A DNA stretch of 64,000 bases from Reclinomonas americana ATCC 50394 (Eukaryota): positions 930,001 through 994,000 of the forward strand of contig PS015009.1 of the NCBI GenBank assembly GCA_048213135.1, read 5' to 3'. The position numbers and the translations under genes were made by a program. Below, in pieces: positions 8,566 through 59,183 of this stretch (positions are counted from its first letter, which is position 1; every line of letters begins with the position of its first letter). A model generated the notes under the pieces. That model did no database searches. It was not told where the DNA came from and worked only from the letters and a program-made list of their open reading frames with translations.

Positions 8566-8680
8566 CAGTAGTGAGTAGTAAGTATCAAGTAGCAAGATAG
8601 GCCCTCATAGGTTGGTGCTCTTCCTGATACTCAATACTTGATACTTAATACCAATTTTGACTTTTTAATTTTGAATTTAA
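8566..8680. repeat. Degenerate heptamer tandem repeats arranged as an inverted pair (AGTA(G/T)(C/T)A vs TACT(T/C)(A/G)A), plus TTTT(G/A)A(A/C) heptamers
   Basis: agtagtgagtagtaagtatcaagtagcaag ... gatactcaatacttgatacttaatac, then aattttgactttttaattttgaattt. The same AGTAGCA family occurs at ~2925-2962. Confidence 0.6.
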
Positions 8681-9154: not shown

Positions 9155-9472
9155 ATGGTGCATTTGCCCGCTCATATCCGCATTAAAGAAAACTCCTGGG
9201 TGGCAAGGATCGCCGCCTGGAAGCTGAACAGCCGCTCCGTAGCCATCGTTATAGGCCGTACCATTCACCTGTGCCGTTGCAGCAAAGAAGAATTTTTAGA
9301 AAGCGAACGTTGGGTAAAGCATGAGCTTTGCCATGTGAGGCAGTACCGGCAGTATGGGTTTCTTGGTTTTATTACCCGTTATGTGTGGGAAAGCATGCGA
9401 AAAGGGTATTACAATAATAGGTTTGAAGTGGAGGCGAGAGCAGCAGAGGAGGAATCAATTACGAATTACTAA
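9155..9472 (+). CDS. Small HExxH metalloprotease-like protein (DUF4157-like)
   Basis: KHELCHVRQY and NRFEVEAR motifs; directly follows bcp. The last residues (ITNY) are encoded by AATTACG heptamer repeats. Confidence 0.7.
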   Translation: MVHLPAHIRIKENSWVARIAAWKLNSRSVAIVIGRTIHLCRCSKEEFLESERWVKHELCHVRQYRQYGFLGFITRYVWESMRKGYYNNRFEVEARAAEEESITNY

Positions 9473-9486
9473 TTACGGGGAGCTCA

Positions 9487-9757
9487 TCAGGTTACATAAC
9501 CTAACGGATTACGTTACCCAACCTAATGGTTTACGTTACCCCACCTAAAAGGTTACGTCCGCTAACCTAACGAGTTACGTTACCCAACCCAATGCGTTAC
9601 GTCACCTGACCTAATGCGTTACGTTACCTGACCTAATGGATTAGGTTACCTAACCTAAAGGATTACGTCCCCCAACCTAATGGTTTACGTTACCCCACCT
9701 AACGGATTACGTTATATAACCTGATGGGATACGTTGCATAACCTAATGAATTACCCT
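9487..9757. repeat. Tandem array A: ~12.5 units with a 22-bp period, consensus AACCTAA-N4-TTACGTT-N4 (imperfect palindrome)
   Basis: Units start at 9498, 9520, 9542, 9564, 9586, 9608, 9630, 9652, 9674, 9696, 9718 and 9740, with an extra right half-site (TCAGGTT) at 9487. Confidence 0.95.
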
Positions 9758-9874
9758 TTTTTATTTAGTCGACGCTCTTTTAGCAGGCGTACAATCCCTG
9801 AAAACCTCGTTTTAACCGCAAAGTCCGCCAAGTTACCCGCGAAGAACGCTAAGTTAGCTCTCCGCACCCGTAAA

Positions 9875-10140
9875 AACCTAATGGAGATAGGTTCAGAACC
9901 TAACGGCATTACGTTCCCCAACCTAATGAGGATAGGTTAGAGACCTATCGAGGATACGTTACCCTACCTAACCCGGATAGGTTATAGACCTATCGAGGAT
10001 ACGTTACCCAACCTAATGAGGATAGGTTAAAGACCTATCGAGGATACGTTACCCTACCTAACCCGGATAGGTTAAGGACCTATCCAGGATACGTTACCCC
10101 ACCTAACCCGGATAGGTTCTCAACCTAACGGGAATACGTT
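9875..10140. repeat. Tandem array B: 12 units alternating 22/23 bp (45-bp higher-order repeat), consensus NACCTA-N7-TA(G/C)GTT
   Basis: Units start at 9875, 9897, 9920, 9942, 9965, 9987, 10010, 10032, 10055, 10077, 10100 and 10122. GACCTATCGAGGATACGTTACCC is identical at 9942, 9987 and 10032. Confidence 0.95.
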
Positions 10141-10141
10141 A

Positions 10142-10156
10142 TGCCGTGGTTGGTAT
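10142..10156 (+). repeat. 15-bp direct repeat, copy 1 (TGCCGTGGTTGGTAT)
   Basis: Identical to 15494-15508. Confidence 0.75.
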
Positions 10157-10306
10157 CTCCTGGTGTCTTTATAGCAATTCACCGGCTCCTCCCTGTGCAA
10201 CTTTGTGAAAACCCTTCATACCCTCTGTGACAGAAAAACTCCCTGCACGTATTTCCCGCACATCAACCCCTTTAAATTACCCGTATTTTACATTGAAATG
10301 GTTAAC

Positions 10307-10334
10307 TTGAACCGATCAAAACAAAATACATTTG
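10307..10334 (+). promoter_or_regulatory. Bacteroidota promoter (TTG-N17-TACATTTG) for the XRE regulator
   Basis: TACATTTG at 10327-10334 ends 4 nt before the ATG at 10339; TTG at 10307-10309. Confidence 0.65.
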
Positions 10335-10338
10335 TACC

Positions 10339-10743
10339 ATGACAACCAACAACAGAACCATACACCAGGGCCGCAACGTAAAGCGTTTTCGTGAAATGCT
10401 GGGCATAAAGCAGGACGCCCTTGCCGCCGACCTGGGCGACGACTGGAACCAGCAAAAAGTATCGCTGCTGGAACAAAAGGAAACTATTGATGATCGGCTG
10501 CTGCAGCAACTCTCTGCCGCACTTAAGATACCCGTGGAAGCGATTGAGAATTTTGATGAGGAGCAGGCGGTGAATATAATTTCGAACACCTTCAACACGC
10601 ATGACCAATCAAACGGCGTAAATGCATATCCTACTTTCAATTTCAACCCGGCTGAAAAAATGATTGAGTTATACGAACGCATGCTGCAGCAGCAAAAGGA
10701 AATGATTGAGAAGTTGGAGAAATTGTTGGAAAGGGGGAAATAA
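10339..10743 (+). CDS. XRE/Cro-C1 family helix-turn-helix transcriptional regulator
   Basis: HQGRNVKRFREMLGIKQDALAADLGDDWNQQKVSLLE HTH, followed by a C-terminal coiled coil (LYERMLQQQKEMIEKLEKLL), typical of Bacteroidota XRE proteins. Confidence 0.9.
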   Translation: MTTNNRTIHQGRNVKRFREMLGIKQDALAADLGDDWNQQKVSLLEQKETIDDRLLQQLSAALKIPVEAIENFDEEQAVNIISNTFNTHDQSNGVNAYPTFNFNPAEKMIELYERMLQQQKEMIEKLEKLLERGK

Positions 10744-10765
10744 ACCTTTTAGTTGAAATATTATA

Positions 10766-10797
10766 AAAAAGCTGCATGAAAATGCGGCTTTTTGTTT
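10766..10797 (+). terminator. Intrinsic terminator after the XRE gene
   Basis: AAAAAGCTGCAT-GAAA-ATGCGGCTTTTT hairpin followed by a T-rich tail. Confidence 0.7.
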
Positions 10798-10909
10798 ATG
10801 TTTATTGTGCCCTAAAATCCGATGCCTGTTAATCTCCTCAAGGCGAGTTTTGCCAGAAGCTATGTTTCACAATTTAACTGAGTTCGCAAATACAGCATGA
10901 ATTTGTGGG

Positions 10910-10981
10910 ATTGGCGAAGGTTGATTTCGCGTAATAGGTGTATTGGCGAAACCTTATTTCGTCAATACACGAGTTAGGCGC
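10910..10981 (+). other. Putative recombination site (attI/attC-like) ending in core GTTAGGC
   Basis: Two tandem dyads, ATTGGCGAA-N7-TTCGCGTAAT (10910-10935) and ATTGGCGAA-N7-TTCGTCAAT (10942-10966). A 13-bp hairpin pairs 10938-10950 with 10958-10970. GTTRRRY core at 10973-10979. Confidence 0.5.
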
Positions 10982-11008
10982 AAGCCGAAGAACATTAACC
11001 TTATCTAG

Positions 11009-11818
11009 ATGAAAAAGGAAAATAATCACCAAGAAGAAGAACAAGATTCCATTACGTTTGGCACCCAAGGATTTAGTGAAGAATTTACGAGTTCAGTTGG
11101 TAAATTGACTCTCAATTTTGCGCATTTAGAATTCATGTTTTCCTTGTTTGCGGGTATGCATATGAATACAGGTTATCCATTTAATGAACTTGTTTTATCA
11201 GAGCTTAGTTTTCGCCAACTTATGAATGTTAGTGTTGGCCTTCACGAATTACTTGAAACTGACAAAAGCAAACGAGATGAATTTAAAGAAATTGTCAAAA
11301 GAGCAACTTTTCTCGAACAACAGCGAAATACAATAACTCATTCGTTTTATGGAATGGAAGCAAAAAGTAAAGCAATAGTTCGCTACAAAAATGTTACGAG
11401 AATAAAAAGTGGTTATAGACAACAAAGACAAGAAATCACTGCTGACAATATACTCGCCATTGCATCCGAAATTGAAGAACTTAGTTTCACTTTAGGCAAG
11501 CTAATCTATGAAATAGACGAAGGCTGGTGGGAGAAAGATGCTAGAAATCCAGAAAATAAAGTAGATAGTGACATGAAAGAACTGATTATTGAAGACAAAC
11601 AAAAGTATCTTGACGAAAACTTTCCTTTTGAGAACGTACCAAACCTAAATGACCAGAGATGTTGTATTCATTGTGAGAAGATTATTAGAGTTGGAGATTA
11701 CAAAGTTTTCAAAGATGAAATGGGAGATGAATTCATTTGCTGTCCAAATACACCCGATTGCAACGGAACAGTAATTGATTGGGTTTCGACGGATTACCTT
11801 GATTCTTTGAAAAAGTAA
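11009..11818 (+). CDS. Hypothetical protein: HEPN-like (RxxxxH) N-terminal domain fused to a Cys-rich Zn-binding C-terminal domain; cassette-like
   Basis: AT-rich ORF with RNTITH in a helical-looking region, then CCIHC...CCPNTPDC. Flanked by GTTAGGCGC and GCGCCTAAC. Confidence 0.7.
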   Translation: MKKENNHQEEEQDSITFGTQGFSEEFTSSVGKLTLNFAHLEFMFSLFAGMHMNTGYPFNELVLSELSFRQLMNVSVGLHELLETDKSKRDEFKEIVKRATFLEQQRNTITHSFYGMEAKSKAIVRYKNVTRIKSGYRQQRQEITADNILAIASEIEELSFTLGKLIYEIDEGWWEKDARNPENKVDSDMKELIIEDKQKYLDENFPFENVPNLNDQRCCIHCEKIIRVGDYKVFKDEMGDEFICCPNTPDCNGTVIDWVSTDYLDSLKK

Positions 11819-11826
11819 ACCTGTAA

Positions 11827-11875
11827 TTTGGCCAGCGCCTAACATCAGGTTTGCCGCAAGCCTATTGGCGGCAGT
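11827..11875 (+). other. Partial attC-like site: inverse core GCCTAAC plus a small hairpin
   Basis: GCGCCTAAC at 11835-11843 starts 16 nt after the stop, followed by a TGCCGC...GCGGCA dyad. No clear downstream GTTRRRY was found. Confidence 0.5.
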
Positions 11876-12013
11876 ACACAAATTGGGGGGACACGGCAGA
11901 CAACCCAAGCTATTGACAACAATTTCACTGCCGACAAACCTTAACTATGCCATCAAACACTGCCAATTACTTTCATTTGCCTTTTAAGTTGCTTTATCCC
12001 TAAATTATAGATT

Positions 12014-13780
12014 ATGTATTTAGAAAAATTCATCATAAAGAATTTCAGAGGCATCGAAGATATTTCGTTGACTTTTAATAAAGGACTAAATGTTCTGATT
12101 GGTGAGAACAATGCTGGCAAGACTGCAATTATTGATGCACTTCGGATTTGTTTGAGTTACGGAAATCAAAGAAGAGAAATCTATGTTTCGCAATCTGACT
12201 TTCACCACGACAAGAATGCCGTATGTGATGGAGCCGAGAATATTGAATTCCATTTACACTTTCACATTGACGTTCCTGAAGAAGCAGGCTGGTTCAATGA
12301 CCTCTTATGCATTCAGGAAAATGGCACACAAGATTTGCAATTACATTTCAGGTTTTATCTTGACGAAAACGAAAGAGTAAAATACAAAGTTTGGGGAGGT
12401 GCAAATGAGGGACAAGCAATTGCCCCTGAAGTTCTTTTCCTAATCTATCATGTTCACTTGGATGCTTTGCGAGATGCAGAACAGTATTTAAGACCAGTTC
12501 GAGGAAACAGATTAGGGCAACTTTATTCTAATATTCAAATTGACCCAAACCACGATACTGACCAAGAAAAAAAAAGGGAATTAGCCAAGAAAGTTCGTTC
12601 CGCAGTTGATAACGATGCTGAATGGATTGGGCATGTTGCTAAAGGAAAAGAGAAAATCAATGAGCATTTAAAAGAAACAAGCTTTACCGACAAACAGCAA
12701 CAAGTTGAGATTTCATTTCTCCCTTTTGACTTCAACAAATTGGTTGACAATTTGAAAATTCAAATGCCGCTTTACTCTGACGAACTATTAGGCGGAGACC
12801 CGACAAAGCAAAAACATTTTGAACTTTATCAGAATGGATTAGGTTATAACAATCTTATTTATACTGCAACAGTATTAGGTGATTTGAAACAAAGAAAAGA
12901 AAGACAGAAAGAAACCTATTCAGCACTGTTAATTGAAGAACCAGAAGCACACCTGCACCCCCAATTGCAAAACTTGTTTTTCAATTATCTAAACAAACTT
13001 GATACTGAGCAAGGTTTTCAAATTTTTATTTCCTCACATTCTCCCACGATAACAGCAAAAGCAAACTTGAAATCAGTAATTGTTCTTCAAAACCAAGTGA
13101 ATAAAATTCATGCTCTTTCTCTTTCAAAATCAGGATTGAGTGACGAAAATCATAAGTATCTGCACAAATTTTTAGATGTTACAAAATCACAAATATTTTT
13201 TTCTAATGGAGCAATTTTAGTTGAAGGAATTTCCGAAGCGTTGCTTATGCCTGTTATTAGTCGAATAGTTGGAGCAGAATATAACATTGACAAAGCAGGG
13301 ATAGAGTTGGTAAATATTAACGGCGTTGCCTTCTCACATTTCGCAAATCTTTTCAACAATGATGATGATGTAAAAAATTTAAAAACAAGATGCTCTCTAA
13401 TTACAGACGATGATACTGCCGATGAGAATGATGAGATTACTTCAAGAGCAAAAATTGCAAAAGGACTTGAAAATAAAAATCTAAAAGTTTTTCTTGCCGA
13501 AAGAACATTTGAGTTTGAACTTTTCATTGCGGGGAATAAGGATTTGCTATTAACGATATTCGCAGAGATGCATCCTGTCGCAGCAGGAAGAATTGTAGCC
13601 AACGCAGACATAAAAATTCATGGAGCCAATTTTTTAGAAAAAGTAATTTCAAATAAAGCAAAGTCTGAATTAGCTCACAGATTAACGGTAAAACTTTCTA
13701 CTGATGAAGCTGCAAGAAACGCCTTTCAAGTCCCAGCTTACATTCAAAATGCAATTAAATATGCTGTTAAGGGAGAATAA
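12014..13780 (+). CDS. gajA: OLD-family ATP-dependent endonuclease (ABC ATPase + TOPRIM), GajA-like
   Basis: Walker A GENNAGKT, Walker B/D-loop LLIEEPEAHLHP, H-loop SSHSP, TOPRIM ILVEGISE and ITDDD. The stop overlaps the next ATG (TAATG). Confidence 0.85.
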   Translation: MYLEKFIIKNFRGIEDISLTFNKGLNVLIGENNAGKTAIIDALRICLSYGNQRREIYVSQSDFHHDKNAVCDGAENIEFHLHFHIDVPEEAGWFNDLLCIQENGTQDLQLHFRFYLDENERVKYKVWGGANEGQAIAPEVLFLIYHVHLDALRDAEQYLRPVRGNRLGQLYSNIQIDPNHDTDQEKKRELAKKVRSAVDNDAEWIGHVAKGKEKINEHLKETSFTDKQQQVEISFLPFDFNKLVDNLKIQMPLYSDELLGGDPTKQKHFELYQNGLGYNNLIYTATVLGDLKQRKERQKETYSALLIEEPEAHLHPQLQNLFFNYLNKLDTEQGFQIFISSHSPTITAKANLKSVIVLQNQVNKIHALSLSKSGLSDENHKYLHKFLDVTKSQIFFSNGAILVEGISEALLMPVISRIVGAEYNIDKAGIELVNINGVAFSHFANLFNNDDDVKNLKTRCSLITDDDTADENDEITSRAKIAKGLENKNLKVFLAERTFEFELFIAGNKDLLLTIFAEMHPVAAGRIVANADIKIHGANFLEKVISNKAKSELAHRLTVKLSTDEAARNAFQVPAYIQNAIKYAVKGE

Positions 13781-15471
13781 TGTTTGAATCACTATCAGAT
13801 AAACAAAGAGAAATCGTTTTTGATAAATCCGGCAAGTTCGTTGTTAGGGCTTGCCCTGGTAGCGGCAAGACATATTGTGTTAGTGCACGACTTGCAAGAT
13901 TGATTTTAGATTGGAAACAGGAATACCAAGGTATAGCGGCTGTTTCTTTTACAAATGTTGCTTGGCAAGAAATAGAAAAAAAATACTCTGAAGAATTTCA
14001 AATAGGCGATAGAATCTCTTTCCCTCACTACTTAGGAACGATTGATAGCTTTGTAAACAAGTACATTTTTCTTCCTTACGGACATTTAGTTTTAAAGTGT
14101 AAAAACAGACCTACATTAGTTGGTGAGCCACACGGTATTTGGACAGGAAGGTTTTTCAGCGATAGCTTATTTGACAATATCAGCTATAAAATTGATGGTA
14201 CTCTATACGCTATCAATGAAAGAATAATGCCGCAGAACTGGCTAAATAACCAACATATAGTCAACTCAAAAAAGAACATCAACAAGGGTGGCTACGCCAC
14301 CCAATCTGATGCGAATTATTTTGCAATGAAAATCCTTGAAGCATTCCCTCAAATTGCCAAGGCAATTGCATTTAGGTTTCCATACTTAATTGTAGATGAA
14401 GCACAGGATACTTCAGATATTCAAATGCGAATTATTGACTTACTGATAGAGAACGGGTTAAATCAAGTAATGCTTGTTGGAGACCCTGACCAAGCAATTT
14501 TTGAATGGAACGATGCAAGACCAGATTTACTTAACCAAAAATATAACGAGTGGCAAGATTCCGTGGTATTAAATGAGAGCAGGAGAAGTTCACAAAGGAT
14601 TTGCAATTTCACACATAATATATCTTCTCTTGCAGAACCATCTACTGCAGTCAGTGATGGTGTAAAAGATTTTGTACATCAGCCAAGAGTTATTTTATAC
14701 GACAATAATCTTCCACAAATTGTTGCAGATTTTATTTCAGAATGTGAACATAATGGAATTGATGTCTCAGAAGAATCCGTTGCAGTTATTTATAGAAGTA
14801 AAAATCTCTTTAACGATATAACGGGAATTCCAGAGGTTCCTTACAATTCTAGCCCTTGGTCAACACATGATAATTATACAAAGGATTTCGCAAGAGGGAA
14901 ATTCTTATATGACAATGGAGATTTTAAAGGAGGGTTTAAAGCAATTGAAAAGGCAATCTTAAAACAGGTTGGAAAGCTGTCCTTTTGCTCAGAGGACACT
15001 ATAGAAAAAATGATTAACAAGATTGGTTTTGTAAAGTTCAAATCACAAGTCTTTGCCTTTATCAATTCCCTTCCTAAATCTGACACAACTCTTGGCATTT
15101 GGATAACGGCAACTAATAAAATACTTACTGACAACAATATTAATTTTCAACTTAGCATCAATAATGCAGGTGCTGATTATTCATTTAATCAAGTATTTCA
15201 ATACGAAAGTGAAGAAATAGCTGACAGGAACTACCGACTTGGAACAGTACATAGTGTAAAAGGGGAAACTTTTGACGCAACACTTTTAGTTTTAAAAACA
15301 AAAGGGATTGGCAAAGCATACAAAACAATATTGAATCAGAATATTTCAATTTCTGATAGTGAGGAATTACGAATTGCTTATGTAGGTATGACAAGACCAA
15401 GAAAGATTTTACTCATAGCTGTTCCAAATCAAGACAACAAAACAGCTTGGGACAACAAACTAAGTCCATAG
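13780..15471 (+). CDS. gajB: UvrD-like SF1 helicase, GajB-like
   Basis: ACPGSGKT, IVDEAQD, VGDPDQAIF, TVHSVKGETFD and YVGMTR motifs; 563 aa, shorter than UvrD; coupled to an OLD nuclease as in Gabija. Confidence 0.82.
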   Translation: MFESLSDKQREIVFDKSGKFVVRACPGSGKTYCVSARLARLILDWKQEYQGIAAVSFTNVAWQEIEKKYSEEFQIGDRISFPHYLGTIDSFVNKYIFLPYGHLVLKCKNRPTLVGEPHGIWTGRFFSDSLFDNISYKIDGTLYAINERIMPQNWLNNQHIVNSKKNINKGGYATQSDANYFAMKILEAFPQIAKAIAFRFPYLIVDEAQDTSDIQMRIIDLLIENGLNQVMLVGDPDQAIFEWNDARPDLLNQKYNEWQDSVVLNESRRSSQRICNFTHNISSLAEPSTAVSDGVKDFVHQPRVILYDNNLPQIVADFISECEHNGIDVSEESVAVIYRSKNLFNDITGIPEVPYNSSPWSTHDNYTKDFARGKFLYDNGDFKGGFKAIEKAILKQVGKLSFCSEDTIEKMINKIGFVKFKSQVFAFINSLPKSDTTLGIWITATNKILTDNNINFQLSINNAGADYSFNQVFQYESEEIADRNYRLGTVHSVKGETFDATLLVLKTKGIGKAYKTILNQNISISDSEELRIAYVGMTRPRKILLIAVPNQDNKTAWDNKLSP

Positions 15472-15493
15472 TATCGGAACAATGAAGGCTACC

Positions 15494-15520
15494 TGCCGTG
15501 GTTGGTATTATCACCAACCA
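15494..15520 (+). repeat. 15-bp direct repeat, copy 2, within a REP-like hairpin (TGGTTGGT-N6-ACCAACCA)
   Basis: tgccgtggttggtattatcaccaacca. Confidence 0.7.
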
Positions 15521-15625
15521 TGTTTCATAAACCGGAAGGAGTTCTTCTCCTTCAGCAATGCTACGAATGACAATATCAGCAGCTGCGTCAAAACGTTGCA
15601 GATATCGCCAAATCAAAACATCCAA

Positions 15626-15693
15626 TCAGGGAAAGACTTTATAAATATCTTTTCTATGAATAAAGCGGGCAAGAAGAATGGTAGAACTTTCAT
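15626..15693 (-). pseudogene. Remnant of a RelE/ParE-family toxin with an internal deletion
   Basis: The ATG overlaps the antitoxin stop (TGATG). MKV(L) is joined out of frame to TILLARFIHRKDIYKVFP*, a RelE/StbE-like C-terminus. Only 68 nt remain. Confidence 0.75.
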
Positions 15694-15890
15694 CAGGCAG
15701 ATAATTTTTTCATTATCTCAGCCCGGCTGGCCTTTTTTGTTTTATCTGCCTGGCGCATCAATTTAGACATTCCAATATCTTCCAACTCCTCCTGGGTTAC
15801 CGTTGACGAGCCAACGCCAAGCTTTTTAAGTAGGTCGCTAATGAATTTAAATTCGTTGCTGTTTTTTGGAGTAACTACCAGTGCTTTCAT
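15693..15890 (-). CDS. Small putative type II antitoxin
   Basis: 65 aa (MKALVVTPKNSNEFKFISDLLKKLG...EDIGMSKLM), directly upstream of and coupled to the RelE remnant. Confidence 0.7.
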   Translation of the reverse strand: MKALVVTPKNSNEFKFISDLLKKLGVGSSTVTQEELEDIGMSKLMRQADKTKKASRAEIMKKLSA

Positions 15891-15954
15891 ATAACAAATG
15901 CACTAAAAACGGCAGACTTTCCATTCCTTCATTCTTTCCTTCTTCATTCCTTCA

Positions 15955-16701
15955 TTATAATATCCATTCCACCTCCCCAAACCCAAACTCCCGCTCCACA
16001 CTATCCGAAGTCTGCAACTGCCCGTTCATAGTTACCCCGTCCACCCTCGTCTCAAACACCATATTCTCCTTCCGCAGCTTCACCTTTTCGCCCAGTTTGT
16101 ACAAATGGCTGTTGTATTTTTTATGAAGCTCTTCGGCAGTACCGTCGTGCATCAGTTCCGCTTTTTCCAGTACCAGGCCGTGTAATTCAGTTGCCAGGCC
16201 TACCGTATCGTAATTCCGGCCGGTGACCTGCTTCAGTGATACGGGGTTTTTAAGGTTGCCCGTAAAGCTCAGCTGGTTGATGTTGATGCCTATACCGGCC
16301 ACGGCCCATTTCCATTCCCGCCCATGAAAAATATTTTCTATAAGTATGCCGCCTGCCTTTCTGTCATTGTAATACAGGTCGTTAGGCCATTTTATGGAGC
16401 AGCCCGGCCCGGCATAGGCGGAAAAAAAGCTGAAGCAGGCTTCGGCAATGGCCATACTCAGGTGGAACTGCTTACCGGCCGGAAGGCCCGCCGGGTCAAT
16501 AATGATGCTCATGGCGATGTTCTGGTCACGCGTCATTTCCCAGCTTTTACCCCGCTGGCCCTTGCCCTGGGTCTGCTCCCGGGCAAACCAGCCCATGCCA
16601 TGGTTCGCCAATCCTGCATGAATCCGGTCCATGGCATAGTTGTTGGTGCTGTCTACGCTGTCGAGTATTTTAAGCAGGGAAGAGCCGGGCATAAGAGACA
16701 A
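15955..16701 (-). CDS. birA: Biotin--[acetyl-CoA-carboxylase] ligase (no N-terminal HTH)
   Basis: DSTNNYA, QTQGKGQRGKSW, IKWPNDL and KAGGILIE motifs. Confidence 0.93.
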   Translation of the reverse strand: MSLMPGSSLLKILDSVDSTNNYAMDRIHAGLANHGMGWFAREQTQGKGQRGKSWEMTRDQNIAMSIIIDPAGLPAGKQFHLSMAIAEACFSFFSAYAGPGCSIKWPNDLYYNDRKAGGILIENIFHGREWKWAVAGIGININQLSFTGNLKNPVSLKQVTGRNYDTVGLATELHGLVLEKAELMHDGTAEELHKKYNSHLYKLGEKVKLRKENMVFETRVDGVTMNGQLQTSDSVEREFGFGEVEWIL

Positions 16702-20566: not shown

Positions 20567-20572
20567 TTGAAT

Positions 20573-20665
20573 CAAAAAGTAAAAAATCAAAAGTAAAAAG
20601 TGAAAATTCAAAAGTGGTTCATCATAAGCAGCTTTTTGAGTTTTTAATTTTGAATTTTTAATTTA
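20573..20665. repeat. Inverted pair of degenerate heptamer arrays ((T/C)AAAA(A)(G/T) vs its complement)
   Basis: caaaaagtaaaaaatcaaaagtaaaaagtgaaaattcaaaag ... ctttttgagtttttaattttgaattttta. The same family occurs at 23437-23510. Confidence 0.65.
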
Positions 20666-58989: not shown

Positions 58990-59183
58990 AATTACGAATT
59001 ACGAATTAGCAATTACGAATATCTCAGATACCGGTCAGCCGGTCTTTTCACAATTACTCCGTCCCGCACCGGAACCAAGGATCACACTCCTGTACATCAG
59101 CACTTTAATCACCACGCATCCATAAATAACCATACGCCCATGCCCCCAACAAATTCGTAATTCGTAATTTGTCATTCGTAATT
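58990..59183. repeat. Inverted pair of AATTACG heptamer arrays
   Basis: (AATTACG)x~4 at 58990-59020 and (CGTAATT)x~4 at 59152-59183. The same heptamer occurs at 9456-9477, ~22324 and ~30311. Confidence 0.75.

Follow-up and report, generated by a model that had tools for sequence, protein, structure and literature searches.

Helically phased palindrome arrays ahead of a Gabija locus are very probably orphan members of a gene-linked array family

Two arrays of short palindromes lie shortly upstream of a gene for an XRE-family helix-turn-helix (HTH) protein and a Gabija defense system in a 64,000-nucleotide stretch of DNA (hereafter the window; positions 930,001 to 994,000 of contig PS015009.1, assembly GCA_048213135.1, filed under Reclinomonas americana ATCC 50394). 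What are these arrays, and does the neighboring XRE protein read them? The initial annotation, made from the sequence, had offered a multi-site operator, a filament or sponge platform, a centromere-like locus and the template of a multi-hairpin non-coding RNA. Host genes in the window have orthologues in one Chitinophagaceae genus at 65-80% nucleotide identity, which points to a Chitinophagaceae-like genome.

Both arrays are real and non-coding, as annotated, and each contains 12 dyad units. Array A (9488-9746, no strand) has a period of 22 and the unit AACCTAA-N4-TTACGTT-N4 with a 6-nt center; the proposed spacing of one half-site per 11 bp is exact across 21 intervals. In array B (9875-10141, no strand), the unit AACCTA-N7-TA[C/G]GTT, with a 7-nt center, recurs at alternating distances of 22 and 23, giving a 45-bp super-unit and a half-site spacing of 12/10/12/11. 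Allowing one mismatch, the A-type dyad ACCTA-N6-TASGT has 22 matches in the window compared to a mean of 4.19 in shuffles, and none of 100 shuffles of the window reached 22. Tandem Repeats Finder (TRF) scores for the arrays are 227 and 364. Every one of the six frames contains stops in both arrays (3-14 per frame), ruling out the coding (heptad) reading that we considered. The variation in array A had been assigned mostly to the 4-nt linkers, which turned out to be partly conserved: across 11 units, two positions of linker 1 are G (in 10 and 8 units, respectively), linker 2 reads A-C-C, with the three bases present in 8, 9, and 9 units, and the most variable unit positions are 1, 8, 11, and 22. 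As the arrays contain only one A4 run, A-tract curvature is unlikely. The 128-bp spacer between the arrays (9747-9874), which in the sequence starts with a T-run, had no blastn match among the loci we collected, nor did the flanks of the arrays match any of these loci. The distance from the end of array B to the ATG of the XRE gene (10339) is 197 bp, close to the one annotated.

The arrays lie within an insertion. A left-flank host gene (9155-9472, + strand), which encodes 105 aa with a weak eCIS-core/DUF4157-like match (Pfam E=5e-4), directly adjoins birA (15955-16701, - strand; Pfam BPL) in both relatives first examined and in eight of nine further relatives; birA was not seen in the ninth locus. 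Since these two genes are neighbors in relatives, 9473-15950 is an insertion. Its cargo includes gajA (12014-13780, + strand; PADLOC GajA E=4e-161) and gajB (13780-15471, + strand; PADLOC GajB E=1e-189), confirming the annotated Gabija system. Ahead of these genes is a cassette-like unit (10973-11843, + strand), in which a 269-aa ORF (11009-11818) lies between complementary GTTRRRY/RYYYAAC-type core sites that we take to fit the attC consensus. This ORF contains an RxxxxH motif, the sole basis for its earlier designation as HEPN-like, and matched nothing in Pfam, PADLOC, or NCBIfam. Downstream of gajB, a 65-aa ORF without a Pfam match (15693-15890, - strand) is followed by a short gene remnant; the two resemble an antitoxin and a RelE-type toxin C terminus, respectively (15640-15890).

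Contigs from three other studies (runs X2, X3, and X5) cover the arrays and the XRE gene and hardly any of 10850-15900. One contig in run X3 links 10750 to 15964 through 3,344 other bases, indicating that the cargo between the XRE gene and birA is exchangeable. Thus, the arrays head a defense locus, as proposed, that is both inserted (relatives lack the insert) and variable (the cargo is swapped in X3). The array pieces recovered from these runs, 182-298 bases on contigs broken at repeats, show no differences in X2 and X3 and 15 differences in 291 bases in X5. We also observed attC-like inverted repeats, complementary in their core sites, on both sides of the 269-aa ORF (10800-10990 and 11830-11960), and in runs X2 and X5 the match to the window resumes at 10957 following 25 other bases. 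These observations suggest cassette exchange just behind the XRE gene, with no integrase in the window. Heptamer micro-arrays occur at gene ends (8567-8678, 9457-9477, 20570-20664, and 58990-59183); at 9457-9477, run X3 has one unit more. Fifteen bases at 10142-10156 (no strand) recur at 15494-15508, around the XRE-gajB segment. We rejected this direct repeat as a target-site duplication, because it is part of a dispersed REP-like hairpin repeat: the piece at 15494-15526 has other flanks in run X1.

The XRE gene (10339-10743, + strand) encodes 134 aa with an HTH_3 match (E=2e-4). Just ahead of its start is a promoter box (10327-10334, + strand) that we take to be of the Bacteroidota -7 type, TAnnTTTG. 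Upstream of this box is a GTA-N3-TAC dyad (10283-10291, no strand), a candidate XRE operator that is absent from the arrays. GTA-N3-TAC was the strongest spaced dyad found de novo before XRE homologues (37 of 96, compared to 4 of 96 downstream controls); it is rare in one genome, G051 (1 of 26 XRE loci). The XRE family is multi-copy, heads small low-GC cargo islets, and has homologues in 104 of 301 Chitinophagaceae genomes. G051 contains 29 of these genes, and our sample of 26 loci covers 27 of them.

Co-occurrence of the arrays with this XRE clade, which the annotation had proposed to test across Bacteroidota genomes, held only in G051 and the window. There, a phased array lies upstream of the XRE gene at 12 of 26 loci (five with the window motif, seven with others) and downstream at one of 26; five of the seven listed loci of the window motif stand 165-713 bp upstream of an XRE homologue, and two loci have the order helical gene (see below), array, XRE gene. 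Outside G051, any phased array was found upstream of three of 70 XRE genes, and the window motif upstream of none. No XRE homologue was detected in the DNA covered, up to 6 kb on each side, around 76 loci matching the array pattern, and none of the 30 best XRE homologues had the window motif within 1.5 kb. The XRE query had no match in two array-rich genomes, G004 and G005, or in four of the seven Chitinophagaceae genomes with real arrays. Moreover, three G051 XRE proteins with an identical HTH (~60 residues) are preceded by the window motif, by another motif, or by no array; the array motif does not follow the HTH recognition helix. Co-location of arrays and XRE genes is real but lineage-specific, with the window motif beside XRE genes only in G051 and the window, and the XRE gene is most likely a neighbor of the arrays with its own short candidate operator. 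Genes following the G051 XREs include KAP NTPases, AAA ATPase pairs, and TIR and DUF4062 proteins; many of the 29 paralogs (L344-L350, L364-L383) precede low-GC defense-like cargo. Outside G051, an ORF that is presumably SymE-like occurs in 18 of 70 XRE loci (L121-L150, L384-L423).

To find related arrays, we searched the GTDB collection with a two-unit pattern. We obtained 76 loci, several per genome, of which 54 carry Bacteroidota titles (Chitinophagales, Saprospiraceae, Bacteroidales, and Flavobacterium). Genome G005 has at least 11 arrays with unrelated neighbors, two of them gene-linked, and seven loci of the window motif are listed for G051. The annotation had named genome-wide scatter of the arrays among the grounds for giving up its proposal, and scatter is largely what we found, with at least 11 intergenic sites in G005. 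Neighbors of 48 loci with at least four units were unrelated, except for one uncharacterized family that appeared four times and again beside two of 14 further loci. Neither plasmids, phages, nor viral contigs matched the array motif, and viral contigs matched neither the XRE protein nor the helical protein described below. The Acinetobacter matches are a 22-bp repeat present in four nearly identical copies ahead of a Rep-like gene, and we set them aside as coincidental. The pattern matched 18 of 301 Chitinophagaceae genomes, of which seven were judged, partly by inspection of the sequence, to contain real arrays. A genome titled Blastocatellaceae (L002; G549, L282) carries the array motif and also encodes a close relative from the helical protein family, reflecting either transfer or a binning error.

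The recurrent partner of these arrays is an uncharacterized ~160-aa all-helical protein (alignments A1 and A2) whose family comprises 1,379 clusters at 50% identity. To examine the association from the gene side, we fetched 110 loci by the protein alone; removing redundancy left 83, and both flanks were available for 64 of these. The pairing is clear: a periodic array adjoins 51 of 64 helical-protein genes, compared to two of 99 flanks of other genes (42 of 64 and one of 99 at a stricter threshold). For these 51 genes, the array is downstream of 46 and upstream of six, with one gene counted on both sides. In five loci (L172, L178, L193, L200, and L201), the module of gene and array follows the same host gene, presumably dtd-like, with variable cargo beyond the array; the cargo of L172 and L193 includes restriction-modification matches. 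In L245, the module lies between cas1 and cas4 matches. Within 260 ORFs around 89 modules we found no conserved gene and no recurring partition NTPase. The difference in GC content between downstream and upstream neighbors was not significant (p=0.07, n=49), and PADLOC matched eight of 60 downstream and five of 64 upstream neighbors, as raw counts without a local background.

The helical protein had no match in Pfam, NCBIfam, PDB sequences, or named ESM Atlas clusters, and no Pfam family matched more than one of 110 members. Its predicted structure (pLDDT 93.9) consists entirely of helices, one of them 55 residues long, with no strands. Foldseek returned nothing at E<=0.001, and the best structural match (Z 5.6, rmsd 5.4 over 59 residues) involved long helices only; the model matched neither a known DNA-binding fold nor a nuclease fold, HUH included. 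With a median pI of 5.3 and a net charge of -4, the protein is acidic; R42, K58, R86, D111, D113, and Y122 are conserved. The long helix of the model would span roughly two DNA turns, a hint from geometry only. As the 64-kb window contained no match to the helical-protein gene, the window arrays are orphan (gene-less) copies.

Array sequence changes with the protein while the pitch stays fixed. The best lag was 21, 22, or 42-45 in 49 of 51 gene-linked arrays, and between clades the sequences differ completely while the period is kept at 21-22 or double. In a larger set that includes loci found by array (89 of 107 with arrays), array similarity rose from 0.02 to 0.29 as protein identity rose from <25% to 70-85%; array and protein similarity were correlated (Mantel rho 0.34, 0 of 999 permutations), a covariation that can come from co-inheritance alone. 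The window arrays are closest to the arrays of one protein subgroup (cosine 0.58 and 0.57, compared to a median of 0.03-0.04). The nearest gene-linked arrays are L075/L087 and L152 for array A and L267/L114, L152, and L264 for array B.

Arrays and gene are also associated at the level of genomes. The helical protein is encoded in all seven Chitinophagaceae genomes with real arrays, compared to 44 of 301 overall (hypergeometric 9e-7, without kinship correction), and in 12 of 15 further array genomes, with no gene match in the other three. Gene-less copies are dispersed in these genomes, and many resemble the resident module: when 32 orphans were ranked against 89 gene-linked arrays, the array of the same genome was the best match for 14 and among the top three for 20, five more orphans without a scored gene-linked array being left out. 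One orphan is a near copy that includes 42 bp of flank. None of six orphans in G004 resembles the resident gene-linked array, and three of nine in G005 are unlike theirs. Shared end sequences were seen among orphans in G543 and in a few pairs elsewhere and were lacking in most. Whatever their role, the window arrays are very probably orphan members of this gene-linked family. The pairing of gene and array appears to be undescribed: the accessible literature, including passages of two 2026 preprints on non-coding arrays, yielded no description of the module. The annotation had recognized no named system in the arrangement of arrays and XRE gene.

How might the arrays act? The C/G positions of opposing half-sites are Watson-Crick matched in 70 of 155 distinct units and mismatched in 85, which is close to chance and shows no pairing bias. 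A terminator-like hairpin separates the gene from its downstream array in 40 of 77 modules. Chance-level pairing and the position of arrays beyond a terminator indicate recognition of duplex DNA. As a multi-site element with helical phasing, the arrays appear to operate at the level of DNA and not of RNA, and to this extent the annotation is supported. One explanation, to which we give roughly even chances, is that dimers of the helical protein read the arrays in trans as a DNA track of locked pitch and that orphans were seeded from the gene-linked array. The proposed module would have two parts, a gene for the ~160-aa all-helical protein and an adjacent 150-500-bp array of two-fold sites one helical turn apart, and both window arrays would be orphan copies of its repeat arm. 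The array would act as double-stranded DNA, on which protein dimers made elsewhere in the genome might assemble side by side along one helix face. Copies would be seeded from the gene-linked array into new intergenic sites and may mark or favor insertion hotspots, and two array subtypes would have landed before an XRE-headed cargo site that now carries Gabija.

We favor track reading because of the pairing of gene and array, the tracking of array sequence with the protein, the presence of the gene in all seven array genomes, the likeness of orphans to resident arrays, and the near-chance base pairing. The main objection is the acidity of the helical protein. Its confidently predicted structure, which would lack a known DNA-binding fold, also speaks against track reading, as do the absence of a match to the gene in the window, the orphans in G004 and G005 that are unlike the resident array, and the three array genomes that gave no match to the gene. 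The strong adjacency of arrays and XRE genes in G051 is explained by this reading only as co-location at hotspots. In addition, similar arrays flank DUF6261 genes, which showed no homology to the helical protein (one sequence compared, probability 0.1), and the reader may therefore be a third, shared host protein. At L361 (1260-2747), a 42-bp array lies between an XRE gene and a divergent DUF6261 gene. A broader and doubtful extension is that the modules form a class of mobile or architectural DNA in which a small protein of unrecognized fold reads and propagates palindrome arrays reprogrammed in each clade, with orphans serving as landing pads or control tracks at which XRE-headed defense cargo is captured and exchanged.

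Other readings assign the arrays to a different reader or to RNA. If the arrays served the adjacent XRE protein as one very large cooperative operator or as a sponge and controlled the defense cargo, this would account for the upstream bias in G051 and for the retention of arrays and XRE gene together in runs X2, X3, and X5 where the cargo is not covered, and the dyad spacing suits HTH dimers. However, XRE matches are missing from the pattern loci and from G004 and most of the array-bearing Chitinophagaceae genomes, the window motif is absent at the 70 XRE genes outside G051, an identical HTH accompanies differing arrays, and the XRE genes have a separate enriched dyad. We consider it rather improbable that the XRE protein is the cognate reader. 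Expanded boxes of a NarL/LuxR-type response regulator of the host, used as enhancer or titration sites, are very unlikely. Boxes of three to four ACSTA half-sites with alternating 10/12 spacing do occur beside response-regulator-like genes (as judged from N-termini) in 11 of 12 non-array matches fetched, but a T stands at the outer position of 19 of 24 box half-sites compared to eight of 562 array half-sites, the motifs of gene-linked arrays in other clades are unrelated, and no such regulator was recognized among the window ORFs. These single-copy boxes (three to four TACSTA half-sites at 10/12-bp spacing, directly after the regulator-like genes in many genomes; L424-L433, L437, L438) are likely an undescribed operator consensus. 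Least probable is that the arrays template small processed RNAs or a non-coding RNA with many hairpins. Folding of the arrays is more stable than that of shuffles (z -2.0 to -5.5), as expected of any dyad array; against an RNA stand the 85 mismatched stems and the missing pairing bias, the frequent position of arrays beyond the terminator of the gene, and the lack of a spacer-like variable segment. Nor did any Rfam family come near its gathering score; the only two matches in the window, both to miRNAs, were far below it.

A selfish repeat of the REP/REPIN kind shares its origin with track reading and differs on function. The arrays would be non-autonomous replicators with no regulatory role here, gathering at and creating insertion hotspots, and would owe their spread to the helical protein, which would itself be a DNA-processing enzyme or would recruit one. 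The arrays in G005 with unrelated neighbors, the resemblance of orphans to the resident module, and the lack of a conserved gene beside the module fit this account, and the six conserved residues could form a catalytic site. In G619, near-identical direct arrays flank a 2.4-kb low-GC segment with transposase-like ORFs; at this locus (L448:326-3061) the two arrays are of the 45-bp type. However, the predicted protein is all-helical and matches no HUH or other nuclease fold, orphans mostly lack shared ends, and selfish copying by itself would not call for the whole-turn pitch that unrelated sequences share. We regard a purely selfish repeat as unlikely.

Track reading, if true, would matter beyond this locus. 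The window adds to the gene-linked cases an orphan state, the likeness between orphans and the gene-linked array within a genome, and the finding that array and XRE gene are separate. The family is large and unannotated, and a pitch that is kept while the array changes with the protein is the signature expected of a reprogrammable system for DNA recognition or propagation. A protein that reads arrays would represent a new architecture for DNA binding, for which nature provides dozens of pairs of protein and site; a protein that spreads them would be a REP/RAYT analogue without an HUH enzyme. Either activity would help explain variable Bacteroidota defense hotspots that have no integrase nearby.

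Several known systems resemble the module in part. Plasmid iterons with Rep, such as the Acinetobacter 4 x 22-bp repeats, share the 22-bp period of two helical turns, but those iterons precede a Rep gene as direct copies that hardly differ, whereas the window-type arrays are dyad mosaics without Rep. Repeats of 42 bp reportedly precede hagB in P. gingivalis; our literature search did not match this report and we set it aside.

BrickBuilt, a minisatellite-MITE of Porphyromonas gingivalis, is likewise a Bacteroidota element of dispersed intergenic tandem units (~23 nt, 19 copies). According to the available text, it has conserved leader and tail ends, and is restricted to its species, and no cognate small gene is named (PMC4596501). 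The module mostly lacks shared ends, spans several orders, and is gene-linked. TIGR, VIPR, and CRISPR arrays are also periodic and non-coding, and each has a dedicated protein with clades that correspond to the repeat; in the portion of the preprint available, their periods are 18, 5, and 60-79 nt, and they contain guide segments that vary (bioRxiv 10.64898/2026.10.21.760802). The module has a period of 21-22.5, partly conserved linkers without a hypervariable spacer, two-fold symmetric sites, and a partner that matches no known effector family.

REP, BIME, and REPIN elements with RAYT share with the module short clustered intergenic palindromes, gene-less dispersal, and a dedicated gene beside some copies; as described in the accessible part of the source, they also have a GTAG foot and a perfect stem, which are absent here (PMC3733652). 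Dispersed extragenic palindromic copies are present in our genomes, as in G005 and G051. The unit consensus contains no GTAG, no GTAG or CGTC foot stands on a paired GC-rich stem, and the partner is all-helical rather than an HUH/Y1 transposase. Strict whole-turn phasing over 10-25 units is a feature of the module. In the type II plasmid centromere parC, the promoter is surrounded by two groups of direct repeats, each of five 11-bp copies. This centromere shares with the window two blocks of 11-bp-phased sites and with the module an adjoining small protein gene; judging from the text available, its repeats are direct, whereas sites here alternate in orientation (PMC2241845). The partner of the module is not ribbon-helix-helix, and the arrays are chromosomal, at many loci per genome. 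The centromere-like proposal of the annotation therefore stands as to phased tandem sites beside a small gene and fails as to a partition NTPase and matches in plasmids or phages. The module resembles REP/RAYT in dispersal and parC/ParR in geometry and departs from defining features of both.
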